From positions 62,560,001 to 62,624,000 of the forward strand of contig NC_045696.1 in assembly GCF_009834535.1 (NCBI RefSeq): DNA of 64,000 nucleotides. The letters are read 5' to 3'. The position numbers and the translations under genes were made by a program. Positions 23,450-52,703 of this stretch are shown here, piece by piece; within the stretch, counting starts at the first letter, position 1; the number at the start of each line of letters is the position of its first letter. The notes below the pieces were generated by a model. It had not been told where the DNA came from. It saw only the letters and a list, made by a program, of their open reading frames with translations, and did no database searches. The DNA is from Camelus ferus. Taxonomy: Eukaryota.

Positions 23450-23461
23450 GCTGCATTACAG
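23450..23461 (+). CDS. ACAP2: Putative alternative 12-nt microexon (AALQ) between exons 9 and 10
   Basis: Pyrimidine tract, then aaatgctgacacag|GCTGCATTACAG|gtaaaa; phase 0/0; positionally equivalent to recalled ACAP3 QQR-TLLQ-DFS. Confidence 0.7.
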
Positions 23462-23589
23462 GTAAAAAAAAAAAAAAGAAAAAGGAAAAGAAAAAGAAAA
23501 AGATGCAGTCAACTAAAAATTAAGAAAATGTATGTCTAATGTAATTATTTAGATTTTTTTTCAAGAATTGAAATTGATCAATTGAAGAA

Positions 23590-25265
23590 ACAATGATGCT
23601 GTGCACATTCATGTATATGCCTTTTGGATATGTGCACACATTTCTCATGGATTTATATCTACTGGTAAAATTGCTTGGTCAAAGAGTGTATGCATGTTTG
23701 TTTTAGTAGATAATGCTAAATTATTTTTCAACATGTTATACCATTCCCAGAAAGCAGTATTGTGTGAGAGTTCCCATTGCTTCTTGCCACCTCATTGTAC
23801 TGTGAGAGTTTTTAATTTTTTGCTGATTTGAGTGGGTAGTTATTGATCTCTCATTCTAGTTTTAATTTATGGTGTTAGTCACTAATGAGCTCAAATACCT
23901 TCCCCTATATCTGTTGGTCATTTGGATATCCTATTTGTTAAATAGCTGTTAGTCTTTCTCCCATTTTCACATCATGTTGCCTAATTAACTATTGATCAAA
24001 TCTTCAGATCTTCCCGATATAAGCTCCCTTTTGGGGTATATGTGCTTTTAATTTTCATGTAGTTCTTAAAATTTCTTCTCTCTTTGGCACTTTTTGTGTC
24101 CTTCCCAACTTAAGATCACAAAGATATATTTCCTGTATAATCCTCTAAGTGTTTATAGATTTGCCTTTTATGTCTAGATCTTTAATCAATCTGTAATTGG
24201 TTTTTTGTATAGTATGAGGTAGAGATCCGGTTTCCTTTTATTTTCACATTGGTAGCTAGATTATCTAGAATCAGTTACTAAAAAGTTTGTTCTTTCCCTG
24301 TTGCTCACTGTTACATTTCCGTGCATGTGAGGTCTATTGCAGGCTCTATTCTATTTCATTGGTCATTTTTATTATGCCAATACTATGATATCGTAATTAT
24401 TTTAGCTTTATAGCATATCTTGATATCTGACAAAACAAAACCTTCTACCTTCTCTTCTTGAAAAGTGAATTGCCAAAGTTCTGCATTTCCGTATGTATAA
24501 ACTTCAGGGATAGCTTTTCAGTTTGCATAAAAATAACTTTTGATTGGGCTTTTGATTGGGATTGCATTGGATCTGTGAATCAATTTGGGGAAGAATTGAT
24601 ATCTTTATTTTATAATACCGTCTGATCCGTGAGTTTGAAATATTTATTCATTTATTTAAGTTTTCTTTAATGTCCTTCATAAAGCTTGATAAGTTTCATG
24701 TACATCTTTTGTTAGATTCATTTCTAAATACTTGTATTGCAAATGTTATCATGTTATCTTAAAATTTTTTTCTGTTTACTTTCCTTGTATATTAGAATAA
24801 AATTTGATTTTTCTGCATTGATTTTGTTACCACTAGTCTTTTTTTTTTTTTTAATTTACTATTGTGCCTAAGAGATTAAAAAAATTTTTTTTTCTGAGTG
24901 GGGAAGTAATTAGGTTTATTTATTTATGTACTTAACTTACTTACTTAATGGAGGTCCTGGGGATTGAGCCCAGGACCTCATGCATGATAAGCAGGCACTC
25001 TACCAGTTGAACTATTCCCTTCCCACCATGTGACCATTAGTCTTGTTAAGCTCTTTTTAATACTAATTTATCTCTGGACTCTTTTGGATGTTATGTGTGT
25101 AAAGTCACATCAGCTATAATATAAATAGTAATAGTTCGGTTATTCCTTTCCAATCCTTTACTTTTTGTTTGTTATCTTGCTGGCTAGGGCTTCCAAAATA
25201 ATCTTAAATCAAAGTGGTAATAGTAGTCCTTCTTATCTTGCTTACAATTTCAAAAGGAAAAGCTA
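23590..25265 (-). mobile_element. Ancient L1M fragment, interrupted by a SINE (bounds approximate)
   Basis: ttttgattgggattgcattggatctgtgaatcaatttggggaagaattgatatcttta and related L1 ORF2 antisense motifs. Confidence 0.75.
24885..25024 (-). mobile_element. Vic-1-like camelid tRNA-derived SINE
   Basis: Reverse complement shows A-box/B-box tRNA-like head (..GAGGTCCTGGGCTCAATCCCCAG), (AAAT)n and AAACCTAATTAC tail, shared with the other four copies. Confidence 0.85.
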
Positions 25266-27059
25266 TTGAAGTCCCTTCATTGGCCAGCCTTGGTCTTGCC
25301 TTCTGTTCCTTGGGCCCCATACCAAGGCTTCAAGTTCTCCTGATGAGGAAATGCCCTTAAGGTGAAAGCTGGCTTCCTTGCTCTGCTTACTTCTGTGGCT
25401 TCCAATTTTCACTCAGTCTTTCGCCTCTTGAGTATTCTGTCCTAATTTGTCAGCTCATCAATATATTTAAATTCTAATATTATATATTTTATTAACATTA
25501 TTAATTGCTTTCATTATGAAATCATATCTGTCACATTTTAAGTACTATAAAATATTAATCAATATTAATAGTAATTATATTGAAGACTTAATTTATCTCA
25601 AGAAATATAGTTGAAAGTTAGAAAAATACTTATAATGCACTGCACTTTCAAGGAAGTCTTATTTTATGTTTTAAATAGCTTTAGGATTGATAAAAACTAC
25701 CAGTGTTACAAATGAAATCTTTACAATATTGCCAAACTCAATTATGTCTGTTGCTGACAAATCTGTCTGCATAATTAAATAAATTATAGCCTCAAATAAA
25801 TGAGGGAATTAAAGTTTCCCTGATTTTTTTCCCCAAAGAAAAAGTAGGAAGAAAAATAGCAGATCATTTATAGATTCTGTTTCATTGATTGTTTTAGATT
25901 ATTATGTCTTTATGGTTAAATTTTGAGAGATGTTGGAAGTGCTTGTTGTTAGTTCTGGAGTTAGTCTCTTTCCTTTTCCCATCGTCATAGACCCTTAGAT
26001 TTGGAAAGCCTTTAGGTGATTCTCACTCTGCTTCCCCTCCAGTGCAGGATCCCCACATCCGAGCATTCTTGGCAGGTGGTCATCTAGCCTCTACCAAAAT
26101 CTTTCTCAAGACCAAACGTTACTACTCTCTCATAGGATAGCATTCCAATTCTGATCATTGGTCCAGAAGTAATTTTGAAAGTTTCAAGATTGATTTTTAG
26201 AGTTTTAAATTTTGGGATTATAGCAGTCTTAGAGTTTTGTTGAAATTACTTTAGATGGTTATCAGGAAATATTTTAAATATAGGATTTCTGATTTCAAAA
26301 CTTAATGAATCATTGGAGAAAAATTAAGAATTTGAATTACATTCAGTGAAGGATAGAATGATTAGAATGACAGAAGATGACTGAATGAACTCCATAGTCG
26401 TCATAAAAAAGTAAGCTCAGAATGCCCGCTTCACACTGTAGTGGTTCTCCTTTGCAAAACTTAATTTTATTTTAGGAAAAAAAGCCTTTATCCTTTTCAA
26501 CTCTCACATAGTGGAGTTATTATTCCTATCAGATTTTTAAAAACTACCATGATAGTAATATATTTATAAAATAGTGATAGGTATAAGTAATCTCAAATGT
26601 AACCATATTCCTTTTTGAAAAATTGTTAGCATAAACAATACCATAAAATATTGGGATTAAATGAAAGCATTTTAAACATAACACCCTATAAAATTAAGTT
26701 ATTCCCTTTGTTTATTTGTATACATATTATTTTATACTTTTAATCACAGTGTATATATTATTTTTTATACAACTTATATGATTTATATTGTTTTCTCTTT
26801 TAATGTATATTCTGTATGATAATCTGCATTTTTATATTATGATAATAATTATTGAAAATAGTCCTAAATTGAAATACATACTTTAATATGTTAAAGCATT
26901 CTATTATTGAACATTATTCCCCTTTCTTATGAATATTGTTGGTATAACTGTCTTAATACAAAGCTTTTCTGCTGTTTGAGCTGTTTCTCTAGGATAGATT
27001 TGTTGTCTAAGGAACTTAGTAAAAATCATATGAACTTTTTAATGTGTTATTTTGTCTAG

Positions 27060-27172
27060 GATTTCTCCAGTGATGATTCTAAGTTAGAATATAATGTAGA
27101 TGCTGCAAATGGCATTGTTATGGAAGGATATCTGTTCAAACGAGCCAGCAATGCTTTCAAAACTTGGAACAG
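27060..27172 (+). CDS. ACAP2: ACAP2 exon 10 (113 nt), start of PH domain: DFSSDDSKLEYNVDAANGIVMEGYLFKRASNAFKTWN(R)
   Basis: ttgtctag|GAT...AACAG|gtaata. Confidence 0.97.
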
Positions 27173-30100
27173 GTAATATATTTCAAATACCAGTCTTGTT
27201 CTTTCCATATGCTCAGTTTCCTGACTTTCCCTGTGGTTTGGCAACTCTTTTCTTCATAATTCTCTAAATTCACAGTCCATAGTAACTTTCCTGAACCCAA
27301 TCTGCTGAAGATAAGTAAGATGGCCTTTGAGGGAAGGGGCCTTAAGAAGCAAGTGAAGAATAGCAATTCTAATTCTAAAATTTAGGCAAAGTGTAAACTA
27401 GGAAGCAAGGAGAATTCTTATGCTTGGTCTTTAGTAACTAGATCATCACAATAAGTAAAATTTGAATGTGAACTACCTCCTGTATTTGTTATGCAGTAGA
27501 TCTGATTGCAAATTACATACTGAATATATTGGGATAAATAGGAAAAGTGAGCTGCTTTTTCCTTTAGGTTCCACCCCATATGATATTTATGTGCATTTTT
27601 ACTTAATGTTTGCTTCTGAATCTTTAAGTGAAGTGATCCTGATTTTTTGATTTTTGCAGTAACTTTAACCAGGAGTTTTAGGAAATGGGATTGTTTCTAT
27701 ATATGAAGTGCGCGTGGCAGCTGATGCTCCTTTATTCTAAACTTGATGGCTACCAAAAATATTATAAAATATTAATTCAGTAAATATCTTTTGAATGAAT
27801 GTGTAAAACATTTTATTGTATCTTCTCATGTATTAATATAATGAAGTGAAATAATTTCAGATATTAAGGAAAAAATAAAAAAGATTGGCTTGTCTCAAGA
27901 TCATCCTTCTGAGTAACAATGATAAATCTTTTATTCAAAGATGCCTCCCTTCTTGCGAAAAAAAAAAAAAAAATAAAGGGTAGTCCGAACAATTTTGTAA
28001 TAATTGAGAAGAGTTTTGGGTTCTGGTTAACTGATTTACTGTTGTATTATTGGTTGAATGTATATATTTTATTTGCCACTTGAACAGGATATGAATTCAC
28101 TTAATGATAGAGAAGATTGTTTTCTTTAAAAAAAATGGACATTAGCAAAATAAATAGAATTTTCTTGGTAAGTTTAATTTAGTATACATTTTTGTTAATT
28201 TAAATGGAAACAATTCTAATTGACTATTTAATATATTGAAATGGGTTCCTAGTGCACTTATTTTGATTTCCTGGTGATGAGGTTATATAGAATAAACATT
28301 CACTGATATTTTCAAACATCAGTGATTTATTACGTATTTCCCTAGCATTTGATACTGTCAAATGTTTAAATGGTACATGATGTGTTTTATTTGAAGTAAT
28401 TTTTCTTTACCTAAGAATAAATATAAACTGGGAAGAATAATGATTATATTTGATATTAACTTTTTGAGTTATGTAGAACTTTTAAAGTAATATATGAACA
28501 TCAAAGGATCAACTAAGATAGTCTGGTTAAGAAATAGTGTTTTAACTATTGTAAAGTAAAAATGAAAAATTAAAATTCTGTTTTCTAAGCTGTAAAAATT
28601 AGGTCAATAATCTTTTAAGCTTTCCTGGCAAATTTCCATAGCCAGAGTAGAAAATTAAAATAAAAAATAGTGTGAATGTCAAATTTTTATAATAAATAAA
28701 GATTTCTCAACCAGTATGGTTTCATGAGGTAATATTAGAATTGAATTTTAACCTTCAGACTTCAAAACAACCTACTTAAAGTTTAACACAGTGAAAATGC
28801 AATAGATCCATAGAAACTGTACCATTGTGTTAAGAAGAAATGAAATGAACTTCCATGGACTACTCCACTCAGATATGCTCTCAGACTTCAAATTGAAGCA
28901 CAGTAAGTGTTAGTAGAAAATTGCATTCCCTTTTAGGACAATAAAAGAAAATTGATTCTGATTTAAGGGTGAACTCTTTCATTTTTAAAATTTATTTCAT
29001 GGATTTTATTAATTGGCATAGACATTAAAATGTGACTTAAATAGGGAATAACTGTTAAATTCTCAGTTGTAGATATATTACCTACCATTTGCAAAGTAAG
29101 AAAAAATAACTTTGGAAACAAGGCCACTTTTTGACAGAGATGCCATCTCTATGTAGTGGGATGACAGTTATTGACTAGAACCATAGATGTAGTTCAACTG
29201 CCTGATTTTTAGTAAAGAAATGGAGGTGCATGGAGATAGTTGTTCATTCAAGGTCACATAGCTGGATGTAACAAAATTGAGGCCCAAAACCTGGCATTTT
29301 TTTTAACTTGCTATAGAAATTCTAAACAGTCTGTATTTTGATAACATAAAATATAGCTTCAACTATTAAAAAATAACTTAAAACTATTAAAAAAAACCCT
29401 TCCTAATCCACTTACATTACTAGGAATAAATTATAGAAAGCAAATTAATTTCATTTTCATATGCCTTTAAAGAACACTTTGATGAAAACACTAGTAAAAA
29501 GCAGACTTGTAAGGAATATAGCATATAAGCATTATATAAAACTCCTCACAAACTAAAAGTCAGAACCTTGTAACAAAAATCTTAAATGTTTTCTAGTTAT
29601 AGGTCAATAAGTATAAAAGAGAGGAAACAGAGTAGTCTATTAAATGTTATTTAGAATTCTCTTTGCTTTTCAATTTTAAAAATTTGGAATATATCTCAAT
29701 GTTTTAATATGAAATTTATCTAAAATCTAATCTTAGGAAATACTTGCAAATAATTTTCCTTTATCTATATAAGTACTTCAGAGTCTGCTCTACTTCTCTA
29801 GTTCTCTATCCAGCTTGATTTAGTATCTTCTACTAGCCTCTGAATAGAAGACTTGTGTTTTTGTGATATCTGTGCCTTTACTTTAAAAATCCAGCAATTC
29901 AGCTATTAAAACATAAAGATTTTTTTTCTGCCCATTGTTTAAGTACTTTTAAGGATTGTGGATTAGTTGTAGGGAACACATTTTCTTATAGTCACCATAA
30001 GGTACCAATCATATAATGATAAATTTGCCATTGTCTATCTATAGTTTTATAGAATAGTGGCATGTATTTTCAAAATCAGCTTTTTAAAAAGATCTTCCTG

Positions 30101-31274
30101 AGGGAAATGTGAATTTGACTTGGAATTCCCAGATAGTTTTAAAACCTCACCCTGTACTTCATAAAATCTAAGTATCACTTGAAAGCATTATTCTATAATC
30201 TGAAATTTAACTGAAGAGATTGTATGATATGATTGAAATAGCATAAGGAGTGAAATGTTTTATGTCGTAAGTGAACTGTTGAGCTTGTTTCTGATTGGTT
30301 TCAGATTTCTAACTTGTGGTGTCTCTTAAGATTTTTATATGTCTATAATATATATGTTTTGAAGATGTGATATCTACTAAAATAATCTTTCTGTATTAGA
30401 CCATCTTCTCAGTGTGGCAGCATCACTTCAGGCTAAAGTCAGTGCTAGTTGGATTACTAATATCTATATTTCTCCTTTGCTTTTCATGATAAATTTAGAA
30501 AAGATGAAGGAACAAGGAAAATAATTAAATATTAACATAGTTTATTTAGTAATGAGCTGTTAAAACTAATAAAGAAGCTGAATAATTACATGCTATGCTC
30601 ACTCTTTGTTGAACTAGAAAGTATAGCCAAAAGCATAAATGTTTTATATAGCATCTTAAAGCTAAGTATTCTATGTGCTGCTGGTGCAGGTATAAATTTT
30701 AGTTTTTACTGGCTTTTTATTTTAAAGTAAGAAGTATATACATAGATTAAAGGTAAACTCTATTTATGTGTGGCTTTAGAGCCTCTGCTATCATTTGATG
30801 AAAAGGGGGTGAGCAGGTGGTGGGAACTTTGCCTTATGGAAAGTTTGCATTTGTTTCAGGTTTATACAGATACATCTATAGTGATTATTTCCTTCATTAG
30901 GATGAGGAAAGGTACTATCTGTATTTTATAGCTATGACCATAAAGGCAGAAAATAATAGTGGAGTGTGCTTAGTCCTGCCAGAACCTTCTATACCATAAT
31001 ACTTGTAGAAAAATTTTGAATATTTCTGAAATATTATTGTTTCAGATTCCTAAGAGTTGGAATTAAATGTATAAATGCAAGTATGTATAATATATGAGCA
31101 AAATGCAAGATATTTTTGACTATTTTGTTAGGTTATGAGCTTAAGCCGGTTCCTTTAATTCTTGCTTTATTTTCATATCATGCTAGTCCTTTGCTTATTT
31201 TGCACATTTGCGTTTTCATTCTTTTACCACCTTTCCTTTATGTTTTAATCCTGCCCCATTTTTTCACATGACAG

Positions 31275-31295
31275 GAAAAAGCCCGATCATATCAG
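31275..31295 (+). CDS. ACAP2: Putative alternative 21-nt microexon in PH domain, (R)KKPDHI(R)
   Basis: ~130-nt pyrimidine-rich upstream tract, cacatgacag|GAAAAAGCCCGATCATATCAG|gtacca; phase 2/2, frame-preserving, no stop. Confidence 0.72.
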
Positions 31296-32361
31296 GTACC
31301 AAATGGCTTCCTTCCCCTCACTCCTACCTCTCCAATTTCCTCTTTGGCACGAGAAAGCTCATAATTAACCTGCATTTCAGTTGGATTACTTGCAATGGAT
31401 ATAAAGTCTCTTATGTTTTAAATTGGGAAGAAAATACAAACATCTTATTTGAGGAATGGAATTATACCTTTTCATTGCTTATCTCCCCAATTTGTTTTAA
31501 TCTGGAAAAGAACATTTGATATATTTATAGTTATCCAAAGAAGATACAGATTGAGTAATATGAATAACTTCATGTATATATATATTTAAGAGAAATAGCT
31601 AGTAAATGCTTTTTAAAATTTTTAGATAGTTACTTAGGAAATAATCCTTTTGGTTATAACTGTATTAATTATGTTTAAAGAAAGCATTGTTAGTTTCTAG
31701 TTTTTTTTGTTTATTATACCATTTTGGTCTTTTTCCCTGGGAAAAATTAAATTGAATTTGAAATAAAGTAGCATATACATGTTTAAACTTTTAATTTTGT
31801 TAAATGCTCACCTATTTGGCACCTATATAAATGTATTCATGAATCCATCATCTGTATAGTTTTAGTGATAAAGTTTCTACTGATTTTGAAGTTGACTTTT
31901 ACCCAAGTTCTTGATTTCAAGTGAGTTCTGGGACTAGTGATCAAAATTGTAAAAGCTACTTGATTTATTTTTTAAGGTACCTCCCCCCCACCCCCCAATT
32001 TTGTCATCTGGAATCTCTCATTGGTATTTAAAAATTAATATTTAATTGTTTATGAATAAGTTTATTGGGTTATTTCAATTTGAGATAGATATAAAGTGAT
32101 GGCTTAATCTTCTTAAAACCAAGACATTTTCCTTTTTAAAAAGTGTTTTATATTTTGACTTTGTGGTCAGTTTCTGAACTTTGTAGACTATAGTGTAATT
32201 GTCAGCACAGGTCTTTCCAACATTTGTTTTTTTATTATTTAATTACCTTTTAATGTACCTTCAAATTGCAGATAGCATGAGCTTGACATATTTAGTGTAT
32301 TTTCTATATTCCATAGACTGTGAATTGTCTCATTTTCCCTTTTATCAGAAATGTTAAGAGA

Positions 32362-32490
32362 GGGGGAGGGTATAGCTTAGTGGTAGACCGTGTGCTTAGC
32401 ATGCATGAGGTCCTGGGTTCAATATCTAGTACCTCCGTTAAAAAATAAATAAATAAATAAACCTAAACAACCTCACCCCCCCAAAAAAAA
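32362..32490 (+). mobile_element. Vic-1-like camelid tRNA-derived SINE
   Basis: GGGGGAGGGTATAGCTTAGTGGTAGA..GAGGTCCTGGGTTCAAT..AAATAAATAAACCTAA..CCCC + A-tail; TSD core AGAAATGTT. Confidence 0.9.
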
Positions 32491-34438
32491 AGAAATGTTG
32501 ATAATAACTGGAATTATTCTATAGGAGCAATTAAAAATTGTATTTCATTTTACTTTCCTGATTGAAGTCTTGATTAATCTAAATGAGTATAGTTAGCTCC
32601 TTTTTCTTTTTTTAATGGCAGAGGAGGGGAGATCGTGTCATAAGACATATAAATCTTAGTAATTAAAAATTTTTTTCTACCTAGGATACATTGTGGCATT
32701 TTTCCTTAGGAGAGATCAAATTAAGATGAATTTATAGTATTTTTCTTAAGTGTACAAAAATCGATGATGTGAAAAAGTCACCCAGAAGCAGAGAGACAGC
32801 AGGGAGTACTGGGCTTCATAAATATAAACGATCTATAAAGTTAATAATCAGAGGAAATAGTCTCTAACAAAAGTTTTTAATCTAGTATTTTGTTATTATG
32901 TTTAGAGGCTATTATTTTAAGATTCAGCAGGTCAAAGGAAATTTATTTTTTGAAGACCTCAGAAGCATGAAAAGTTTACATGGGTGTTTTTCCATTGTAC
33001 AATAAAATTCTTTGTAGTTTTTCATCAAATTATATATTATAATTATATAAAACAAAAATTTTATTAATATAGTTCACCCTACTTCAAATGATTTTTTTAA
33101 AAAACTCTTTAATCAATATCAGAGATTTTTTCCATTGCATGTCATCCCATGTGGCAGGGCTGCACCATTTTGTTTGTTTGTAGGTATTTCCTTTAACATT
33201 TCTAACCAACCATGTGTCCCAAAGCAAAGAAACCCAGAAGTTCTTCCTTTTCTAGCCTGCCTCTTGATGATTTACATTTGGAGGCAACCACTTGGTTTTA
33301 TCTAGATCCTTAATTAACAAATTTCTATTTTAATAGTAAAGGTGATACCTTTTTAAATAGCAAGAAAACCTAACAATCTATCTAGCTTAAAAATAGAAAA
33401 GCATCTAATCATTTTCTCAGCTTCGAGAATTAACCTTATTTTTTAAAAATAGAAATTCTAAATATATCTAAATACAACTTTTAGTGCTTTGTATTAGTAT
33501 CAATGAAAAGGTAGAATCTCTCTCTGCTAATAGATTAATAACTAATGTTTACAATAGAAATCATCTCACATAAAACTAATTTTAAAATAATGACTCAAAT
33601 ATTGTTTTACCTTTCATGCTTGATGAGAATTTTTGCTTTCTTTTGTGAATGGCTTTGGCTGTGATTTTTTTTTTTTTTTGTAAGTCTTTAGGTCCTTCTA
33701 CTGTTTTGATAAATTAGTAGCTTAGTTTTTTTCTTCTAAAGAAGATTGCAAGTGTTTGCCAATTAATTTACAGTAATGAGTGGGACAATATAAATATTTG
33801 TGTGAATCATTTTACTAATGATTTTTATTATTTTGCTTAGAAGTTTTTTACATGAAAGTAAGGCCAAGTGAGTTGGCAACTATTTCCTGTTTGATACCAG
33901 TTCTAAAGGGTGATAAAATTTTCTGTTTTGCTTAACAAATTGAATGTTTGTTGAATTAGCTGCAGAAAGGTTGAAAACAAAGCACCATTTATTTCAGTCT
34001 TTTATTGTATACAATGGATAGTTTTATTTATAATATAAATTTATTTCTACTTTATAACAAAAGCAGTTATTTTGTGGGAACAACTTAGTAATTTTTGAGG
34101 CAGCTCAAAAAGGTAAATTTTTATTTTAAAATAATCATTATTTGATAATAGCATAAGGCATAACAGCTTTTGTTAGGATATAAATTTCTGACATAAGAAT
34201 GAATCAAAATGTAGTAATTTTATTTTCCTATTTTGTGGTTTTAAAATTGTTTAAATTGTTTTTTTACTTTCAGTAGTTGTCTCATTGATGTCAGTTTATA
34301 TGAAGCAAAACAAAACAATGCACTTCTCAAAAAGTAACTACCATAAACTGATTTTCTAGTGCTTTCCCAAATACTTCATTTCTTACAACTGAAATAAATT
34401 ATGTTTGTGAGAACTTAATCTATTTTGTATTTATTTAG

Positions 34439-34490
34439 ACGCTGGTTTTCAATACAGAACAATCAGTTGGTTTACCAGAAAAAGTTTAAG
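34439..34490 (+). CDS. ACAP2: ACAP2 exon 11 (52 nt), PH domain: RWFSIQNNQLVYQKKFK
   Basis: ttatttag|ACGC...TTTAAG|gtaggt. Confidence 0.96.
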
Positions 34491-42117: not shown

Positions 42118-42399
<282 letters not shown>

Positions 42400-42669
42400 T
42401 AGAGGACCTTTCCCACTTGCCTAATTTGACTGCTAGTTTGTGTCTTTGTACCTTTGTAAAGTGGATAAAATTCTGGTTTATGAAGTGCTTTTGAGTACTT
42501 TGATTCATCATTCATTATTAACCAGAAAATCTGTCCCTATTATTAACGTGTTGAGGGCTACATTAGAGGCTGTGTCACATTAAAAGAGGAAAATAATTTG
42601 CATAATATGCAAATGGAGTAGAGACTTGATAGTTTTATATATTAATACAGTCTTTTTTTTCCCACTTAG

Positions 42670-42739
42670 GAGTCTTGGAGTTCATTTTTCAAAAGTACGC
42701 TCTTTAACTTTAGATACCTGGGAGCCTGAACTTTTAAAG
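42670..42739 (+). CDS. ACAP2: ACAP2 exon 15 (70 nt), ArfGAP: SLGVHFSKVRSLTLDTWEPELLK
   Basis: cacttag|GAGT...TTAAAG|gtaaaa. Confidence 0.97.
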
Positions 42740-43903
42740 GTAAAATAAATATTTGCTTTAAAATATTTTATGTTTTCTCATAAAAATCAAGATTTTAGAA
42801 TCTTGGTTTACAAATGTATGAGTTTCTCAGTGTTAATAACGAATCAAATTGTGTTGGAATATATCTGACACTATATATTTGGCAAATCTGGTGTTTTCAT
42901 ATTGGTCTTTTTTAGATTGCTAAGCTTATGGAGCTTAATCCATGTCAGCTCACTTTTTAAGGAAACCAGCATACTTATATTTTTGTGTTTTCTCAAAAAG
43001 TATCTTACATTTTTGCCTTAATTTTAATCTTTTATAATTATATAAATTCTTGTTAAAATATGAGATACTGCTATAGTGAGCTCCACAATGGGTTGGTATA
43101 GCATATTGTTATGATTGCATTTTTTCAGCATAGGCCCACTTGCAACTTTACATTTGTCAGTGATAGTAGTCATCAGACCAAGACATCCTTTTCCCCTGTG
43201 TAAGGATTCGTATCTATGAAAATGTCATACATAATTTTAGATCACAGAGATTTTTTAATAAGATTTATGAAATTCATAATGGTTAACAGTATACTCCTTT
43301 AAATTCCCACCATTTAGTTTACCATATTGCAAAAAAAAAATTAGTTTGAATGTTGTGCTATATTTTGCATTTATTTCTGTCTGAAAATTGTGTTTGTAAT
43401 GTGCTTGTATTTTTATTCCAATCCATAGATAAACTGATAATCCTGTCAATTATGTAAAATAAAAACTTTTGATTTTGGGCATTTTTGTGTAAATATCTAA
43501 ATGAAGGTGATAAATTGCATCCTGTGGTAGACCCCTATTTAGATAAGTTCTATAAATTGTTATGAATTCAAAGGAGAAGAAAGTGGGGGTTGAGGGTTAG
43601 AAATTTAATTTCTGCACCAGCTTTGTGTAGATATGAACTCAGTGGATTCAATTTAGAAAAATAGTTGAAATACAAGTGTCTGATACATTAAAAAAATCGA
43701 AACTTAAAAAAAAATTTGAAATACTTGTAAATAAAGTAGTAGGAGAAAATAGTTTATTACAGTTCTCAGCTGTTTAAAACTGAACCTGTCTGGACCTAGC
43801 CTTCTTTTTTAGCAGACGTTGCGAATAACATGTAGCCTTGTGCCAGCTATAATGGAGAGATAGAAATCTGGTAAAAGATGGGTGAAGAGAAACCATTTAA
43901 AAA

Positions 43904-44052
43904 TTTTTTTTTTAATTTTTAAAATTTTTTTAGTGGGGGAGGTAATTAGGTTTATTTATTTATTTTTATTTTTCAAAGAGGTGCTAGGGATTGAACCTAG
44001 GACCTCATGCATGATAAAGATGTACTGTACCACTTGAGCTATACCGTCCCCC
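43904..44052 (-). mobile_element. Vic-1-like camelid tRNA-derived SINE
   Basis: gggggaggtaattaggtttatttattt..gggattgaacctaggacctcatgcatg..gagctatacc; TSD GAGAAACC(A/C)TTT at 43887 and 44054. Confidence 0.88.
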
Positions 44053-44280
44053 TGAGAAACCCTTTCTTGAGGAGTGATAATCTTCTAGGAAGATGCTCTA
44101 GTAGAATGGCAAAATGGTGATATTGCTTGCAATTTTTGTCTCATTTTGTTTTAACTTTAAACATCTTTGTGGAATGAGCATTAGCAGAACATGCAAAAAG
44201 AATTAAGTAGCTGTGCTTGCTTAAGGACTTATATTACTTTTAGGAATTTATAACTTATTTTCTGTTTTTCTGCCAAACAG

Positions 44281-44372
44281 CTTATGTGTGAGTTGGGGAA
44301 TGATGTCATAAATAGAGTTTATGAAGCTAATGTGGAAAAAATGGGAATAAAGAAACCACAACCAGGACAAAG
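44281..44372 (+). CDS. ACAP2: ACAP2 exon 16 (92 nt), ArfGAP: LMCELGNDVINRVYEANVEKMGIKKPQPGQ(R)
   Basis: ccaaacag|CTT...CAAAG|gtacta. Confidence 0.97.
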
Positions 44373-45744
44373 GTACTAATTTCAGTTGTGTTAATGTGTT
44401 ACCTTCCCCTCTCCCCCAATCAGGAATATAGCTGTGATTTTATTTCACTATAATTGGTATGTAACATTGAGACAGACTGTTCACAAGAGATCATTACTAC
44501 CTGTTAAAATGTGGCTGTCTCTTTCTTGGGTATATTAATTAGATAATCATTTTTTTTATTAATCATAAACTTAGTTATAGTTTTCAGATAAGAGAGAATC
44601 TTAAAAATTAAGGCTCTATATAGGGATGTAAAAACTCTTAGCAGTTGAAGTAGAACAAAGTTCTGTTATTGGCAGGCCCTTAAAGAGATAATGTTTCTAA
44701 GGATCAAGTTTTTATTACTTACAATGAATAATTTCACATTGTTTGACTTAGTTCAGCAAATATTTGTTAATCACATGTTTCATACATGACATTATTATAT
44801 TGAAGAGTTAAAGGTGAAAAGGGTAGCTTCTGGTAGGAGAGAGCACTTAACACTTAATTGCTCTGTTTGAAATTTTACTTTCAATTCTATGTATGGAGAC
44901 TTATTGAACGAAGTGGCTAAGAGTGTCTTCAAAGGTAGACAATTAGTTTTTATTGTTGTTGTTTTTAGAATTTATGCTTTTTTATATTAGGTATTAAAAT
45001 TTTACCTGCTGTAATCCTATGTTTGACTATATCTTTATGTATAATTAATACTTTTTAAAAGTCATTGCTTTCTAAACCAACACCACTTAAATCAGATTCT
45101 TATTTTTTTGGCTAAAGCGTGGCTGTTTGAGTTATTTTAGACCTTGAGTTATCCTTTGTTAGCCAAAGACCTAAGCTTTTTTAAAAGAATGTAAGTAAGA
45201 AAAGGTACAGAACAAACTTGGGATTTTATGATTGTATCATAAAACAGAAGTTTAAAATGTGATACCTTTTTTGGTCCCCCTTAAGTTAGAAATGCTATGT
45301 ATGCTGTTTTAAAATATTGTCTTACAAAAAATAATGGTTATGAATAGTGATAGTTCAGTATGTGACATTTATTGGAGTAAAAATGGAATTAAAGTTGATT
45401 TCTATGAACTTGAGTAGTTTCTTGGTAATGTTTTTCATTCTGTAAAAAGCACAAGGGAATATGAATAGAAATGAGTGAGCATAGAAATTAAGAGAATATG
45501 AGAGTGCCATGTTAATACTTAGGATTCTTCAGTTAGTTTATTTGTATTTCACTTAAACATGAAATCATAGTTCATTAAATATTTGGAAGGAAAACATGTT
45601 GCATAATATTACAATTTCAGCTTTAACTAGTATTACATTTAGTGACTTCCTTTGCAATATTCAATATGTAATGGCTTCTTTTTAGTATTAGCCATGCTAA
45701 GAGATTAAGCAGAACATCATGACATTTTTATGTATACCAATCAG

Positions 45745-45929
45745 ACAGGAGAAAGAGGCGTATATCAGAGCAAAATATGTGGAGAGGAAATTTGTGGATA
45801 AATATTCTATATCATCATCACCTCCTGAGCAGGGAAAAAAGATTGACTCCAAAAGTTATGAAGAAAAGAGATTGAGCATTTCTAAACTTGGACCAAGTGA
45901 ACAAGTCAGAGCATTTCCCCAAAGTTCAG
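45745..45929 (+). CDS. ACAP2: ACAP2 exon 17 (185 nt): QEKEAYIRAKYVERKFVDKYS...RAFPQSS
   Basis: ccaatcag|ACAG...TCAG|gtatta; lies within ORF 45719..45955; the linker half differs from recalled human ACAP2 at several residues. Confidence 0.96.
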
Positions 45930-46117
45930 GTATTACAGTTGGTTTGTCTATATAAATATGTTCTTGAGCTGAAGTCACTTTCTTAATCTCTGAATTAGTA
46001 CCTGTTACAGATTTTTTAAATGTTAAGAACCTATTTCCTTCTATATACCCTAAGGAAACAGTTATCTTTAAAGCAGTTAAATTTAAATAATGTCTTGGTA
46101 ATTCATATTTCTAGATA

Positions 46118-46355
46118 CAGTTGACCCTTGAACAACTCGGGGATTAGGGCGCCAACTCTCTGCTCAGTCAAAACTCCACATATAATTTGTAGTCAGTTCC
46201 TCCACATCTGCTCGGCAGTTTCTCTGTATCCTCAGTTCTGCACCCATGGATTAAGCCAACCCTGGATCACGTGGTTTTGTAATATTTACTACTGAAAAAA
46301 TCCGACTATAGGTGGACCTACCTAGTTTAAACTTGTGTTGTTCAAGGGTCAATTG
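46118..46355. mobile_element. MER8-like (Tigger2 family, TcMar) MITE, 238 bp
   Basis: TIRs CAGTTGACCCTTGAACAAC / GTTGTTCAAGGGTCAATTG, flanked by TA on both sides. Confidence 0.9.
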
Positions 46356-46562
46356 TAGTGTGTATATTCTAAGGAACAGAACTGCTCAGAATGCAAGGGG
46401 AGATGGGAGTTACAAATCTTTCATGCAAAAAGCCCTAAATATCTGATTAACCACCTAATATCCTTCCTATTTTTTCCTCCTAAATTTTTCCCAGTAATGT
46501 TTTTCCTGCCCTTTTCCCTTCTTACGGCCTGCTTTGTGCTTTGCTAACTTGCATGTCCTCAG

Positions 46563-46667
46563 TGGTTGCTGTAAATAGCGACGAGGCCAGGCGGGAGTCT
46601 CTCTTCTGTCCTGATGAGCTAGATTCACTCTTCTCCTACTTTGATACTTCTTCAAAACTACGTAGTA
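46563..46667 (+). CDS. ACAP2: Putative alternative 105-nt cassette exon: VVAVNSDEARRESLFCPDELDSLFSYFDTSSKLRS
   Basis: Pyrimidine tract, ctaac branch-like site and cctcag|TG...AGTA|gtaagt; phase 1/1; CpG-retaining coding-like sequence; resembles recalled ACAP3 RRDSLFCPDELDSLFSYFD. Confidence 0.88.
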
Positions 46668-47050
46668 GTAAGTACTACTCTTGTGGAGCATCCCAAGTCT
46701 GTGCCGGTGGTCATTGTGCGGTGTGGCCATTTCTCTAGATGTTACCCATTGTCTCAGAATTACACATTACTAACAGTCATATAGTAAATTCAGCTCTTTA
46801 CTGTCCCTGACACTCATGGGGTAGAGATATGTTACAACTCTGAAAATAAGTTTATTTTCAGGCTTTGTGATTGATTCATATTTCAATAAGCAAAATGTTC
46901 CAAAGGATTACAGTTGTGCTAAATTTATTCACTGGTGGTGGCTGAGTTTATGTAGATGTATCAGAGCTCATTTTAAAACCTCATTGTTTGTGGGAGACTG
47001 TTTTCTCAATGTGTGAACTTTAATCACTAGCTAATTTTTCTTTAAAACAG

Positions 47051-47143
47051 TCAGAAGTAATGACAGTGGAATCCAGCAGAGCTCTGATGATGGAAGAGAA
47101 TCTTTACCCTCCACAGTGTCAGCCAATAGTTTATATGAGCCTG
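47051..47143 (+). CDS. ACAP2: ACAP2 exon 18 (93 nt): (V)RSNDSGIQQSSDDGRESLPSTVSANSLYEP
   Basis: taaaacag|TCAGA...CCTG|gtgagt. Confidence 0.96.
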
Positions 47144-47974
47144 GTGAGTTTTGGTGAAATCCAGTGTTAATTGGTATTGTTTGCTGAAAAATGCGTGTGG
47201 TAAATTCCAGGTTTGATTACGTAGTATCTAAGGAAATGGTTAGTCTTTTAGAAGGTCCTAAGGGCCAATTAATACTGCCAAGTGAGAAAGCAGCTATTTC
47301 TTTTCTTATTTGGAAGTTCTCTCCTAGCTGTGCATTCTTCTAAGTCTCATAATATGTGCTACAAGTAACTTGTCAATAGTTAGGATACTTTTTAATCCAC
47401 ATGAACTGTAGATCTTATTGCCATTATCTTGTTTGTTTGGCTGTCTTTCAGGAGAAGGAGATCAGCAAATCCCCCCCACACCCCAGCCCCTGCCCCACCA
47501 TTAGGTTTTCCTTCTGACCTGTGCTTTCCTCCTATATTCTCTCCTTTATGATTTCAGTGGTTTTGGTCTTGCAAATACTCAGGGTAGTAAGCATTCTTTA
47601 AATTATTTGAACTGCTTGTGCTGCAAATTGTGATGGTATCGGGCCATCCTAGGAATAAAGTAAGGTTTGGTCTAGTAGTAAAATTCTTTAGTGATTCTTA
47701 CTGCCTCTTCTGAGTCTTTAAGACTTTAAGGCTTTTAGGAACATACCTAATTTTAATCTAATACAGAGTAATTTACCTACTCATTCTATACTGGCAAGAC
47801 CACAAAGGCCTGGTATACCAATCAGTCTTTATAAGAGAAGAAGGTTAACTGTTTGGAGAGTGACTAGTCTATCGGAAATAAGATACCTTTGTGAATATCT
47901 CCCATTAGCTCATTTGTTAAATTAGTGGTTTCTTATGTCATAGCTTTCACATTGTAATACAAGTCAGAGTTTAT

Positions 47975-48172
47975 GTTTTTAAAAGTTGTGGTAAGATACA
48001 TATAACATAAAATTTATCATCTTAACCATTTTCAGGTGTACAGTTCAGTGACATTAAGTCTGTTTACACTGTTGCACTGCCATCACCATCGTCCATCCCC
48101 AGAATTCTTCATCTTACAAAACTGAAATTCTGTACCTGTGAAACAGTAACTTCTCATTTTTTTCCATCCCTG
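47975..48172 (-). mobile_element. L1MB-like 3' end, ~45 nt upstream of the exon 19 acceptor
   Basis: tgtggtaagatacatataacataaaatttatcatcttaaccattttcaggtgtacagttcagtgacattaag. Confidence 0.85.
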
Positions 48173-48215
48173 CCAAGAGCTCATTTTTCTTGACGTATTT
48201 GTGTTTGCTTTTCAG

Positions 48216-48404
48216 AAGGAGAAAGGCAAGATTCTTCTATGTTTCTCGACTCTAAACATCTTAATCCAGGACTCCAGCTTTACAGGGCTTCCTATGAGAA
48301 GAATCTTCCTAAAATGGCTGAGGCTTTGGCTCATGGTGCAGACGTGAACTGGGCAAATTCCTGAGGAAAATAAAGGAACACCGCTTATCCAGGCTGTATT
48401 AGGG
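48216..48404 (+). CDS. ACAP2: ACAP2 exon 19, start of ankyrin region; 189 nt with an apparent 1-bp insertion near 48360-48361 (TGA at 48362-48364)
   Basis: ttttcag|AAGGA...TTAGGG|gtatga. Reads EGERQDSSMF...GADVNWANS*; removing one C restores EENKGTPLIQAVLG and the 188 nt required by the phases. Confidence 0.93.
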
Positions 48405-48822
48405 GTATGAATTTGTAAATTGAGGTTTTCAGTAAAACATAAAAAAATAAAATTTATTCTGAACATAGCTTTAGCATTATCTTTTGCTTTAAGAGATGGG
48501 TTGGAAAATAGAAGCAGCAGCTAGTAGTGGTTTCTGAATATTGCTTTGTGTAAGCTCAATTTTTTTCTTAATGGAAGAGAATTCTAGTAATGAAAGTAGT
48601 GTGTTTTGCTAGGTCACAGAGTGCACATTGAACCCCAGTTAGAAGTAGTTCTTGGGAAGAAAATAACATAATTTATCATTTCTTTGCTTTTGCTAGGAGA
48701 ACATTTTTTTCTTTTGAGGAGAATGTATTAAAAAGGCTTTTGAGTAAAGTAAATACTCTATTTTTAATAGAAATATATTGTTGTTTGCTTTTTGTACATT
48801 TTATTTTCTTTTTTCCTCTAAG

Positions 48823-48932
48823 GGCTCTTTGGTGACATGCGAGTTTCTCCTTCAGAATGGTGCTAATGTGAATCAAAGAGATGTGCAAGGGCGGGGACCA
48901 CTGCACCATGCCACCGTCTTAGGGCACACGGG
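48823..48932 (+). CDS. ACAP2: ACAP2 exon 20 (110 nt), ankyrin repeats: GSLVTCEFLLQNGANVNQRDVQGRGPLHHATVLGHT(G)
   Basis: cctctaag|GGC...ACGGG|gtaaac. Confidence 0.97.
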
Positions 48933-50240
48933 GTAAACTATAGTGCTACATATTTGAGTGTATTTTGTTTGAAAAAAAATATTTTAAAATAATGTTTTGC
49001 TTTTTCTCAGGTTAAGAATTTTAGGTAGAGTTTGTAAAGTGATACTTTCCTCTGACTTATATTGTCATGATGGAACTTGAAATTTTAAAAATTTCATTCA
49101 TGAAAAAGATACTGTTACTTTTCAGACAAGAAAATTACAAAACTTACTTTCAATTTTACTAATATTTATATAGATCTGTTTCAGTATTTAAAACTGTTAC
49201 TGAAATTGTTGCGATTTTATGAGACAACGTAAGTCTGTGTGTGTGTGTGTGCATGCCCGCATGCATTTATGGATATACACACATACATTATGTACATAGC
49301 ACACACATTTTGGGAGAATTTTGTAACTTTGTAAATTTTAGTTTTTCCACAGGGTAGTTAAAGTCAGATTCTAAAGTAAATTCTTATTCTGTGCTATTGA
49401 TGCTGTGGCTTCTGAAGCAATATTTAGATTCACAGAAAAATAAAACAATAAAAATAGGCTTTCTACTAGAGAATACAAATAAAGTAAAAATGTTGGCCTT
49501 ATGTGAAAAGTTTGTGTCATAGATGATTGTTTCTCAATAAAACATCTCAGGATCTCCAAGACTTATTACCTGGACAAGCAAGAAGCTGTCCTTTTTTCAG
49601 TTTATTTATAGTATCTTCTATTTTTATCATAGGCTGTTTTCTTTTGCTTTATTAGCAAAGAGATTCAGCTCAATAACTTTACCTTAAAAGTGGTTCTATT
49701 TAACTCATCCTTTGTATTTTCTTCTTAAACAATCATAGTTATTCCCCATTTTACTTCACAGCCTCTTAATTTATGCCTTCATTTTTTCATTTTTGTCAAT
49801 TTCTTTGTTATTAATATTTGTGGAATACAGTGGCAAGATTTTTGCCCACTTTATTGCTATTGTAATTATCATTAACATATTATGATAACATTGCCTTGGC
49901 TTCCTTCTTTCCCAGATAATGGCCTTGAGTGATTTTTGTTTTATTTAAGCTTATACCTATCTCTGTACATCTTTTTATGATATTCTTTGATGATAGAGAC
50001 CATAATTTATACATCCCACTGTGTTATATATTACAGGTTAAATATGAAAATACCTTGAGATTTATAAAATGCTGATCATGATAAATTTTTATTATTAGAG
50101 TCAATATTCAGTAAATCTTTGTCAAATCAGTCAAGAATTTCCTAATGAAAATGTTACTTAAGTAGTTTTTTTTTTAAGGTGAATACCAACTTTTTTTTTC
50201 CTTATTGACAATATCTCAAAAATGCTGTTTCCTTAAACAG

Positions 50241-50351
50241 GCAGGTGTGTTTATTCCTAAAACGAGGTGCCAATCAACATGCCACTGATGAAGAAGGGAA
50301 AGACCCTTTGAGTATAGCTGTGGAAGCAGCCAATGCTGATATAGTGACTTT
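50241..50351 (+). CDS. ACAP2: ACAP2 exon 21 (111 nt), ankyrin repeats: QVCLFLKRGANQHATDEEGKDPLSIAVEAANADIVT(L)
   Basis: ttaaacag|GCAG...ACTTT|gtaagt. Confidence 0.97.
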
Positions 50352-50489
50352 GTAAGTGTTTTTTTTTCCATCTGATTATTTCTCATAAAATATATTACTT
50401 GTATATGGTTTTAACATAGAGTTTCATGTGTAGACCTGAAATTTAAACTTGGTTATTTACTATGGGCTGTGTGCTTCTCTAACTACATT

Positions 50490-50690
50490 AAATATATTAA
50501 GCACTTTACATACATGAACTTATTTGGTTCTCACCTCAACTCTATAAAGGTTTATTATTATTGGCCTCATTTTACAAGGAAGCCAACTACAGATAATTTG
50601 AGAAACTAGTAAGTGGTGGAGCTGGGATTTGAACCCAAGAATTCTGGCTCAGTAACCCATGTGCTTAGCTACTTCTCTTATACTGCCTGA
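50490..50690 (-). mobile_element. MIR SINE
   Basis: attattggcctcattttacaagga..ctagtaagtggtggagctgggatttgaacccaag. Confidence 0.8.
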
Positions 50691-52555
50691 CCAGTAGGAA
50701 CAGAAAACCATTGACTTTTCTAAAATGGAATCTTTAACTCTTAGTACAATACTGGGGTGGAAGTTGGGTTGGGTTGGTACAGTAACAGGCAATTATACTA
50801 CTACCTCAAGAATTAGAGGATTGTAAACAGGGAAGCCAACTGCGTTGATGTTAGTAACTTTTGCAGTTGCATTGCCTTTGGGCAGTGGTATTTAGGGACC
50901 TGTTTGTGCTTTTTTTTTTTTTTTTTCCAAAGAATTAGTCACATGAGTACTCTATTTTGAGATAAAAATACTTGTTTTTGGATGTTTGGATATAATTTAA
51001 TATGATCTATTAAAGAAAGAATCTTGAGGTCTTAATTTGATTTTCATCTTAGATCAAAGTTGTTTGTTATACTTGGAATCTAGGAATGTGATTGTTGCCT
51101 ACACTTCATTGTTACTTAGGAAATCTCAAACATATGTTGTATGGATCACTTATTCATTCTGTTCTGGGCTGAGTGAAACCCAGGGTTGTTGATCCTCTGT
51201 TGTACGAGTAGAGACAGTTCCATCCACACTGCTGAATGTCAGTCATTTACAAAGAGAAACTCCCTTGACTGTCTTGAACTCCTGAGCTCCCACTGAGAAT
51301 TCTTCACTTGACACATGTCACCCCTCTCTGACCCCTGAAAAGTTAAAAACAAAACAAAGCAAAACAAAACAGCAAAACGTATTTTCTCTGTACTCAGCTT
51401 CTTTTCCTCGCTGGAGGGGTTTTTGTTATTGTGGAGGCTATTGTAGAAAACCTTAGAACCGTTAAATCATTATAGATTTACAACTAGAAAAAATAAGTTG
51501 TTAAAGAAAAGATAGGAATGGTATAGAGAAATGAACCCTGGCTGCAGCTTCCCAAGCAATTCTTATAGTAATGGCCTCTCTTCCTTAGAAATATCTGGTC
51601 CCACATTATCTAAATTTTCTCATTTTGTTTTGTATGAGGACTTAAGTTTCACTTAAAAGTTTTTTTTGAAAAAAAATTTTGAAATACCCATCCTCTCTGA
51701 AAAGTCCAAATACCAAAGGGAGACTTCTTTTGCTATTATTAATTTACACAGTGGTTGAGAAAGGAAATGGAAGGGAATTGTGGTACTTTGAAGATAGGAA
51801 AAACCTCTATCAGACGCTGTAATAGCCAGAGAGAGCATCTTGGAAGAGGGTGATAGAAGTCTGGGAAGGCAGTGAGTATTTGGTGGCCTGAGGACAGGTA
51901 AGAAGTACAGAGTAGGAGAGGGTCACCAAAAGCAACATTTGAGAGGAAACTCTTGTTTTCTTAATCCAGTGCTACATTTCTTCCTGCTGCCGAGATAAAT
52001 AATCCTGAAAAGAACGTACAATCAACATGGTAACCATGGGAAAATCTTAATAACTTAATGGCCATTTGTTTTAATGTCTGTGTGTCAAATATATTCCCAG
52101 TATATATAGAGAATACATACTATTTATATGTCTGAAACTGCTATACCTCAGAGTGAACCAGAATGAACTTATGACAGGCTATTGCTTCCATACTACAGAA
52201 GCAATTATTTTAGCAGTTGGCAGTTAAAGTTTGACAGGTTGCTTTAGAAGCCAGGAATTCTCTGGAGTCTGGAAGAAGTAAGCTCCTGGAGGTGCTGCAA
52301 GGAACCTGCTTAAACAGAGCTGAAATGCTCTTGTTAGAAATCTTTTATTGTCTTCTTTCATGAGAATTGTATAAACTAAAATATGGTTATTTTTATATCT
52401 CAGATTGCTAGGTCTGATAAACTAAAAACCCTTTTGTTTCAGCAGTAAAAGAAAAAATTATATTAGTACATGTCTTAGCTCCTTATATAATTCTTTAGCT
52501 TATGAATCTTTATATTGTACAACTTCATTTAAAAAATCCTTTTATTTAATTTTAG

Positions 52556-52617
52556 GTTACGTTTAGCAAGAATGAATGAAGAGATGCGGGAATCAGAAGG
52601 ACTTTATGGACAGCCAG
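52556..52617 (+). CDS. ACAP2: ACAP2 exon 22 (62 nt): LRLARMNEEMRESEGLYGQP
   Basis: attttag|GTTA...CCAG|gtcaat (weak donor). Confidence 0.96.
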
Positions 52618-52703
52618 GTCAATATTCTACCAATAACCATACTGAAATGCAGTATAAGAAATGCATCCAGGAATTTATCAGTTTACAGTTGGAAGATTCA
52701 TAG
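52618..52703 (+). CDS. ACAP2: Alternative C-terminus by read-through of the exon 22 donor: GQYSTNNHTEMQYKKCIQEFISLQLEDS*
   Basis: Frame stays open for 28 codons to TAG at 52701-52703; resembles recalled ACAP3 C-terminus PTELQFRRCIQEFISLHLEES*. Confidence 0.85.

Follow-up and report, generated by a model that had tools for sequence, protein, structure and literature searches.

Introduction

As excerpts of reviews describe it, ACAP2 couples Rab35 to the inactivation of Arf6 in neurite outgrowth, phagocytosis and recycling, and an excerpt of a review of the Arf field describes what individual isoforms of Arf GTPase-activating proteins (GAPs) do as almost entirely unknown (PMC6724607). How much of ACAP2 is optional, how old the optional pieces are, and whether they are used together are the questions raised by a stretch of 64,000 nucleotides (nt) of the Camelus ferus genome (contig NC_045696.1, given here as C1:62560001-62624000 of a 2.09-Gb assembly), which we refer to as the window. 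A first-pass annotation of this window had proposed that the introns of ACAP2 conceal a programme of segments that would convert the protein to an ACAP3-like form. Our analysis indicates that the interval is very probably the 3' two thirds of mammalian ACAP2, a BAR-PH-ArfGAP-ankyrin (ANK) Arf6 GAP, with four conserved alternative coding modules that are already in public gene models: a 12-nt exon (AALQ), a 21-nt exon in the PH domain (KKPDHIR), a 105-nt exon in the linker between the ArfGAP domain and the ANK repeats, and a read-through C-terminus. The modules are real, conserved and already annotated; what the isoforms do can be proposed from modelling.

Four Alternative Modules of ACAP2

The reference used throughout for tblastn, Pfam and structure modelling was P0032, the 819-residue ACAP2 isoform X3 of Sciurus carolinensis, which carries all four modules. 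With P0032 as the query, 21 exons were mapped between 7408 and 52700 on the + strand of the window (G+C content 32%), covering ACAP2 from about residue 99 through its C-terminal end. P0032 shows the domain order of the ACAP subfamily, BAR, PH, ArfGAP and ankyrin repeats (Pfam BAR_3 5-238, PH 272-371, ArfGap 412-526 and Ank_2 656-750), and the window exons map along it. At 94-100% identity to ACAP2 models, these exons are nearer to ACAP2 than to ACAP3 or ACAP1, each of which has a separate locus in the same genome (contigs C13 and C16, respectively), and the canonical tail encoded in the window is identical to that of the ACAP2 chain in PDB entry 6if3_A.

The frame-preserving 12-nt, 105-nt and read-through segments that the first-pass annotation had picked out are all present with proper splice sites (Table 1). 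They are also absent from the 778-residue form, as it had stated, and the lengths fit: 819 - 4 - 7 - 35 - 27 + 32 = 778. All three cassettes have AG/GT splice sites and in-frame lengths of 12, 21 and 105 nt, and public proteins occur with and without each insert. The AALQ exon is the sole AG-N12-GT site coding for this peptide within 21800-27100, the PH microexon, which the first-pass annotation had mentioned without coordinates, changes NRRWF to NRKKPDHIRRWF, and the 105-nt exon encodes RRESLFCPDELDSLFSYFD at 46589-46645 (+ strand). Reading past the donor of the penultimate exon yields GQYSTNNHTEMQYKKCIQEFISLQLEDS and then TAG, and TEMQYKKCIQEFISLQLEDS of this tail is encoded at 52641-52700 (+ strand).

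Public annotation carries the modules widely. When the 48 residues of the read-through C-terminus were searched against 5.8 billion proteins, 641 matches at E<=0.001 were obtained among 1932 candidates, and among the best 120 of the 641 there are 34 proteins that are 100% identical across all 48 residues. At such identity (E ~1e-22) the match is far beyond chance. Most of the 34 are named ACAP2 isoforms (X2, X3, X4, X6, X8, X9, X10, X12 and X15), and among the matches listed the identical tail is held by primates, rodents, carnivores, whales, a shrew, a bat and a crocodile, with 96-98% identity in birds and a turtle and 83-93% in frogs, gar, Polypterus, sturgeon, Albula and whale shark. The frog ACAP2 proteins P0047-P0050 have an alternative tail that continues beyond the mammalian stop (..FISLQLGHSESSGRKMNSNSSD), so the position of the stop varies across tetrapods.

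All four modules occur together in three models of 819 residues (P0025, P0031 from Lontra as isoform X3, and P0032), and most other combinations are also found among annotated ACAP2 isoforms. The PH insert reads KKPDHTR in pig, KKPDHNR in frog, KKPSQNR in gar and KKPDGIR in lizard, and AALQ extends to gar, Albula and Chanos. Seven of the listed ACAP2 proteins come from Logan transcriptome-style assemblies. The first-pass annotation had allowed that some segments might exist as predicted isoforms, which proves correct for every one of them; its description of the modules as hidden does not survive, since all four occur singly and jointly in public predictions. The ACAP2 modules are thus already known, if little studied, and do not represent a new kind of element; their novelty is low because they are already in public annotation.

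Table 1. Coordinates in the window of the alternative modules of ACAP2 and the exons around them (a slash marks an exon boundary)
Feature	Start	End	Strand	Basis and signals
Constitutive exon ending ...IQQK, 5' of the 12-nt exon	21754	21828	+	tblastn with P0032, junction search
12-nt alternative microexon GCTGCATTACAG (AALQ), phase 0	23450	23461	+	Acceptor cacag, donor gtaaaa; TGC at -11 and -21; in public ACAP2 isoforms
Constitutive exon DFSSDD...KTWN(R), PH-domain start, strand beta1	27060	27172	+	tblastn, splice-site and junction searches
21-nt alternative PH microexon GAAAAAGCCCGATCATATCAG (KKPDHIR)	31275	31295	+	Acceptor gacag, donor gtacca; TGC at -24
Constitutive exon (R)RWFSIQNNQLVYQKKFK, PH strand beta2	34439	34490	+	tblastn, splice-site and junction searches
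Constitutive exon, ArfGAP-domain end and linker start, 5' of the 105-nt exon	45745	45929	+	tblastn, junction search
105-nt alternative exon (..VAVNSDEARRESLFCPDELDSLFSYFDTSSKLRS..)	46563	46667	+	cctcag/TGGTTG...CGTAGTA/gtaagt; TGCATG at -13
Constitutive linker exon (..RSNDSGIQQSSDDG..)	47051	47143	+	tblastn, junction search
Penultimate exon (LRLARMNEEMRESEGLYGQP-G), common to both C-termini	52556	52617	+	Weak donor GTCAAT at 52618 (GT 52618-52619)
Read-through extension (G)QYSTNNHTEMQYKKCIQEFISLQLEDS	52618	52703	+	TAG 52701-52703; first downstream AATAAA 53178
Canonical last exon, coding part, (G)DETYQDIFRDFSQMASNNPEKLNRFQQDSQKF	58235	58335	+	TGA 58333-58335; tail also in PDB 6if3_A

Homology with ACAP3

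Three of the four modules have counterparts in ACAP3. In the alignment, the columns of the ACAP2 modules are filled by TLLQ, RRDSLFCPDELDSLFSYFD and TELQY[RK][RK]CIQEFISL in the ACAP3 proteins of a mammal (P0121, Tamandua), birds and a turtle. The first-pass annotation had named equivalents of this kind for ACAP3, and the correspondence of position stands; the tail it gave was slightly off in that Y, and not F, follows TELQ. The ACAP3 locus of the same genome (C13, minus strand) has its own 12-nt microexon for TLLQ (cccacag/ACGCTGCTGCAG/gtgagt) and an exon (RRDSLFCPDELD) that contains RRDS and ends CGCAGTA/gtaagt, which shares its donor phase with the ACAP2 counterpart, CGTAGTA/gtaagt. The ACAP3 tail (TELQYRRCIQEFISLHL..) is contiguous with the LRLARM exon, and GC stands where ACAP2 has the GT of its donor. 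When the 34-residue exon peptide was searched against all six frames of the genome, the ACAP2 and ACAP3 loci were the only ones returned. Within this exon, none of the 16 ACAP2 and ACAP3 sequences compared, which range from mammal to teleost, departs at R578, R579 or any residue from S581 to D596, although the linker around them is poorly conserved. The ACAP3 pieces are not present in every model: TLLQ is missing from 9 of the 46 with a readable site, and the RRDS exon from 8 of the 57 that span the linker.

Because of this positional homology and of the matching ACAP3 exons in the same genome, an origin before the ACAP2/ACAP3 split is indicated, and descent of the 12-nt exon, the 105-nt exon and the read-through tail from a common ACAP2/ACAP3 ancestor is well supported by sequence comparison. 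The earlier proposal that these three segments pre-date the duplication is accordingly borne out by shared exon positions and phases. The PH microexon is a different matter. The first-pass annotation had suggested that it belongs to the same ACAP3-like set, yet the ACAP3 intron at its position is only about 88 nt long, and the insert is found in no ACAP3, ACAP1 or invertebrate sequence of a 12-sequence alignment. Judged by its distribution, it belongs to ACAP2 alone and goes back at least to the bony vertebrates.

Two further observations concern the annotation and the neighbourhood of these exons. Among bird ACAP3 models (P0061-P0120), 17 carry VISFYLQ at the TLLQ position and several others carry similar strings, which looks like a missed 12-nt microexon with intron sequence annotated by homology in its place. 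Immediately 3' of the 105-nt exon lies a serine-rich exon (SNDSGIQQSSDDG in ACAP2, SSDSGLGGSSDGS in ACAP3) that resembles coral P0129 (SSDSHDEGSSDG; alignment columns 650-720); this serine-rich stretch may have arisen long before the FCPDELD motif of the 105-nt exon.

The Age of the Two C-Terminal Tails

If the read-through tail is shared with ACAP3, which of the two ACAP2 tails came first? A search of P0032 against 1.84 billion cluster representatives gave 145,717 matches, and the statements that follow concern the best 150, which were listed. The canonical type of tail, D[ED]T[YF]..[IV][FV].[DE]FS.MAS..PE[KR]L, is present in turtle ACAP1 (P0122), octopus (P0125), scorpion (P0126) and coral (P0129), and ACAP1 of the same genome also has a canonical-type tail spliced from a separate last exon. 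The CIQEFISL type was seen only in vertebrate ACAP2 and ACAP3, including those of Tetraodon and Silurus, and the FCPDELD motif is found in 13 of 147 representatives, none of the 13 being distant and invertebrate-like. The teleost protein P0146 (Goodea) and the representative P0175 combine FCPDELD with a canonical-type tail. Judging from these sequences, the canonical spliced tail is the older, metazoan one and the ACAP2/ACAP3 ancestor already had both; both would pre-date the split because teleost ACAP3-like proteins also use the canonical type. Mammalian ACAP3 appears to have kept the read-through tail only, and in the same genome no relic of a canonical-type last exon was found within 10 kb downstream of ACAP3 among the matches listed for three of five tail queries (best non-shared E >=0.26). 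The one-way switch of ACAP2 to an ACAP3-like protein that had been envisaged does not fit this history, in which the canonical tail is ancient among metazoans and belongs to teleost ACAP3-like proteins as well.

Several other tails deserve mention. In P0130, whose cluster includes a member named ACAP3-like, and in P0159, the sequences after GQPG read ITTCTVIFREFPHMALH.. and FTSCSAIFREFPHMALH.., which look like decayed forms of the canonical DTTYIDIFREFSHMASHNPEKL tail of P0146 and P0175. The ACAP1-like predicted proteins P0133 and P0167 also continue past LRLAKMREAEAAQGQAG into the intron, but what follows is proline-rich and unrelated, and it includes no conserved tail of the kind that ACAP2 and ACAP3 have. 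The two ACAP2 tails were aligned in the same columns by MAFFT. An origin of the alternative tail as a duplicate of the canonical one was considered and set aside as too weak: column shuffling attained the profile-profile score of 13.07 in 1223 of 20000 trials with the alternative-tail profile and in 807 of 20000 with the canonical one (p ~0.04-0.06).

Origin of the Read-Through Tail in Transcripts

The donor that precedes the alternative tail is weak (GTCAAT) compared with strong donors such as the GTAAGT of the 105-nt exon. Where it is left unused, translation would continue for 27 codons into the last intron and produce the alternative tail, either through intronic polyadenylation or through retention of that intron. 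Of the words sampled from 52556-54000, 100% are in X9 and 94% in X13, two runs labelled as RNA, and both of these RNA-recorded holders of the read-through stretch are labelled "reproductive system metagenome." The TAG lies 84 nt 3' of the donor and the first AATAAA is at 53178; transcripts seem to pass this AATAAA because the RNA-labelled runs hold words up to 54000.

Passage beyond the first AATAAA is what a retained intron would show, the tail does arise from an unused splice donor, and many of the records that bear it are automatic predictions, all of which would suit a non-functional intron retention or an annotation artefact copied among models. We nevertheless regard this explanation as scarcely credible. 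Over the 27 extra codons the Camelus ferus window and crocodile agree completely (100% identity), and identity is still 83-93% in frogs, gar and shark, where a neutral intron would diverge more. ACAP3 normally ends in the same tail, a confident helix is predicted for the tail (...CIQEFISLQLEDS) in two models, and proteins that bear it have also been assembled from transcriptome runs (Logan). A conserved alternative C-terminus is the reading retained in what follows.

Splicing Regulation and the Question of a Coordinated Programme

The three cassettes would be included or skipped through ordinary regulated splicing. Both microexons are at most 27 nt long and have TGC 11-24 nt upstream. A TGC motif between the polypyrimidine tract and the 3' splice site is the cis architecture of SRRM3/4-dependent microexons, and we infer that the 12-nt and 21-nt exons may be of this type. 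The 105-nt exon has four TGC within 33 nt upstream. Inside this run, 13 nt 5' of the exon, stands TGCATG (46550-46555), the RBFOX-type hexamer. The intron 3' of the 12-nt exon (23462-23500) opens with gtaaaaaaaaaaaaaagaaaaaggaaaagaaaaag, a long purine tract, mostly A, right at the donor.

Whether the four modules make up one co-regulated, mainly neural programme that turns ACAP2 into an ACAP3-like protein is a further question, and we think such a programme rather unlikely. Three modules do have ACAP3 counterparts, the TGC motifs just described accompany all three cassettes, and a preprint, in the part consulted, counts ACAP2, exon unspecified, among the genes that host SRRM3-dependent islet microexons, which it describes as part of the neural set (bioRxiv 10.1101/2022.04.02.486809). 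AALQ, the 105-nt exon and the alternative tail are moreover combined in three of the seven Logan proteins (P0015, P0029 and P0030). The other four depart from this pattern: P0017 has the 105-nt exon without AALQ, P0023 has AALQ without the 105-nt exon, and P0008 and P0001 (the latter N-terminally incomplete) have neither, while the PH insert is in none of the six Logan proteins that span its site. Further points against a programme are that the PH microexon lacks an ACAP3 counterpart, that nearly every combination of modules occurs among annotated isoforms, and that the RNA-recorded holders of the read-through stretch point to the reproductive system and not to brain. Short-read assemblies and automatic models are uninformative on coordination in either direction. 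The literature searched, with subscription journals mostly outside it and an earlier description therefore possible, contained no study of these ACAP2 isoforms or of such a programme. We accordingly return to the plainer reading, in which ACAP2 carries four conserved alternative modules.

Predicted Structural Effects of the Modules

An AlphaFold2 model of P0032, built on a 77-sequence alignment (mean predicted local distance difference test score, pLDDT, 78.4), places each module in a recognizable context. AALQ (249-252) sits where the last BAR helix (H149-254) finishes, and owing to this placement it would extend the helix by roughly one turn ahead of the PH domain. KKPDHIR (290-296) lies between the PH strands E271-279 and E297-303, in the beta1-beta2 loop, which in PH domains usually carries the basic residues that bind phosphoinositides; the insert would enlarge this loop and make it more basic. 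Residues 528-648, including the 105-nt exon, have pLDDT <50 and are disordered in the model. To this ArfGAP-ANK linker the exon would add an invariant short linear motif and a kinase-type RRxS site, the 18 invariant residues being read as a short linear motif because the exon sits in a disordered stretch.

The alternative tail is predicted as a helix (H799-815, pLDDT ~85), and a control model of P0001, made with an alignment of alternative-tail sequences only, again gives a helix (H295-312). When the P0032 model (651..819) was superposed on the Rab35-bound ACAP2 crystal structure 6if3_A (605..766; Z 24.0, root-mean-square deviation [rmsd] 2.9, 155 aligned), the tail helix fell on the canonical tail, and when residues 410..815 were superposed on ACAP1 3t9k_B (405..721; Z 35.7, rmsd 1.6, 269 aligned) it fell on the ACAP1 tail. 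The tail swap would trade one amphipathic helix after the ANK repeats for another and remove the ...SNNPEKLNRFQQDSQKF extension.

Candidate Partners of the 105-nt Exon

The invariant motif of the 105-nt exon is most likely a regulated partner-binding site, a role that we treat as putative. Neither the exon peptide nor the alternative tail belongs to a Pfam family. One specific candidate is a motif of the FFAT kind (two phenylalanines in an acidic tract), formed by the acidic tract and SYFDTSS (SYFDAGA in ACAP3), that would tether ACAP2 and ACAP3 to VAPA or VAPB of the endoplasmic reticulum, with phosphorylation at RRxS tuning the binding. By eye the sequence does resemble the FFAT core EFFDAxE with its acidic flank (here DELDSLF), and it is invariant and placed in a disordered linker, as binding motifs are. 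The core has no acidic residue at positions 1 and 7, however, and the 18 conserved residues (LFCPDELDSLFSYFD) are far more than an FFAT core needs, which suggests a different or larger interface. In the literature searched, no paper links FFAT with ACAP2 or ACAP3, the two co-mentions being a paper on ORP3/IQSec1 and a review of endosomal motors. Complex predictions of the VAPA MSP domain (1-135) with the exon peptide (566-612) scored 0.32, 0.36 and 0.36 against 0.27 for one control, which is no evidence either way. Overall, we consider a VAP tether quite improbable. Another candidate, that the 105-nt exon corresponds to the S554 region of ACAP1, was discarded: the exon peptide matched no ACAP1 chain in PDB, and its sole match was unrelated (E 1.5).

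A broader conjecture would have some partner of ACAP2 and ACAP3 dock at RRxSLFCPDELDSLFSYFD under the control of phosphorylation. In ACAP2 this site would be switched on by inclusion of the exon, with the retuned lipid loop of the PH domain and the swapped post-ANK helix altering effector coupling (e.g., to Rab35). Splicing would then set the endosomal pathway on which this Arf6 GAP acts. We put this forward as speculation and hold it, in all its parts, to be doubtful. The preferred account of the exon itself stays with a putative regulated binding site for which the partner may be neither VAPA nor VAPB.

Weight of the Evidence and Significance

Several considerations weigh against our overall reading of the locus. 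Much of the protein support comes from automatic gene models, and the seven Logan proteins are short-read assemblies in which distant exons are not phased. RNA support for the read-through consists of the word content of two runs, part of which could stem from pre-mRNA or from DNA contamination. How often the modules are included, how they are regulated and where the read-through mRNA ends are inferences, as are the functional effects of the four modules. As for the tail helix, the control model superposes on 6if3_A through 147..285 only (605..749; Z 24.5, rmsd 2.4, 138 aligned) and the tails are not superposed; since the control does not reproduce the superposition, where the helix sits is not robustly predicted.

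A last difficulty is found in the window itself. The constitutive ANK exon at 48216-48404 has an extra C at about 48361 (48355-48368 reads AATTCCTGAGGAA), where the frame of ACAP2 models wants one base fewer. This 1-nt insertion results in an in-frame TGA and splits the tblastn match across two frames (48212-48361 and 48363-48404). If real, it would truncate every isoform in this individual, and it is probably an assembly error. The codon neighbouring the insertion gives NKGT where NKAT is expected.

The optional pieces occupy four sites: the junction of BAR and PH domains, the PH loop that binds lipids, a linker motif conserved without exception, and the helix that follows the Rab35-binding ANK repeats. 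Because these are places relevant to function, isoform choice could alter membrane targeting or partners. To our knowledge, functional work on ACAP2 has used the 778-residue form. The value of the present analysis is a precise map of the modules, an evolutionary ordering in which the older tail is distinguished from the modules shared with ACAP3, and concrete hypotheses on little-studied isoforms.

Comparison with Known Systems

The closest known counterparts are predicted ACAP2 isoforms of other mammals, such as Sciurus carolinensis X3 (P0032), Lontra canadensis X3 (P0031), Hylobates moloch X4 (P0011) and Balaenoptera X3 (P0016), which have the same 12-, 21- and 105-nt inserts and the tail. 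Across RefSeq, Ensembl and UniProt, predicted isoforms have a tail 100% identical to that of the window and show no structural difference from it; they are automatic models. ACAP3 (centaurin-beta5) resembles ACAP2 in its TLLQ 12-nt microexon, its RRDSLFCPDELDSLFSYFD exon at the same donor phase and its equivalent tail, at an overall identity of 62-66%. It differs in that the shared pieces are mostly included in its models, in being without the PH microexon, and in having GC and not GT after GQPG. ACAP1, as the titles of PDB entries 3T9K and 4F1P indicate, has a regulatory phosphorylation site, S554, in the ArfGAP-ANK region, which is a precedent in a paralogue for RRxS; unlike ACAP2, it has no FCPDELD motif, and no such exon exists at the ACAP1 locus of this genome.

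Among other Arf regulators, cytohesin-1 also has a tiny alternative exon in its PH domain, a 3-nt microexon that alters phosphoinositide preference and localisation according to the account excerpted from a review (Ratcliffe, 2018, cited in PMC6724607). The ACAP2 insert differs in adding seven residues to the beta1-beta2 loop, and its effect on lipid binding is putative. With the neural and islet microexon programme of SRRM3/SRRM4, ACAP2 shares very short, in-frame and deeply conserved exons in a membrane-traffic gene, with TGC near the 3' splice site, and such a programme was reportedly described by Irimia in 2014. The ACAP2 105-nt exon and tail switch set it apart from that programme in that neither is a microexon; the islet preprint lists ACAP2 as a host gene (10.1101/2022.04.02.486809).

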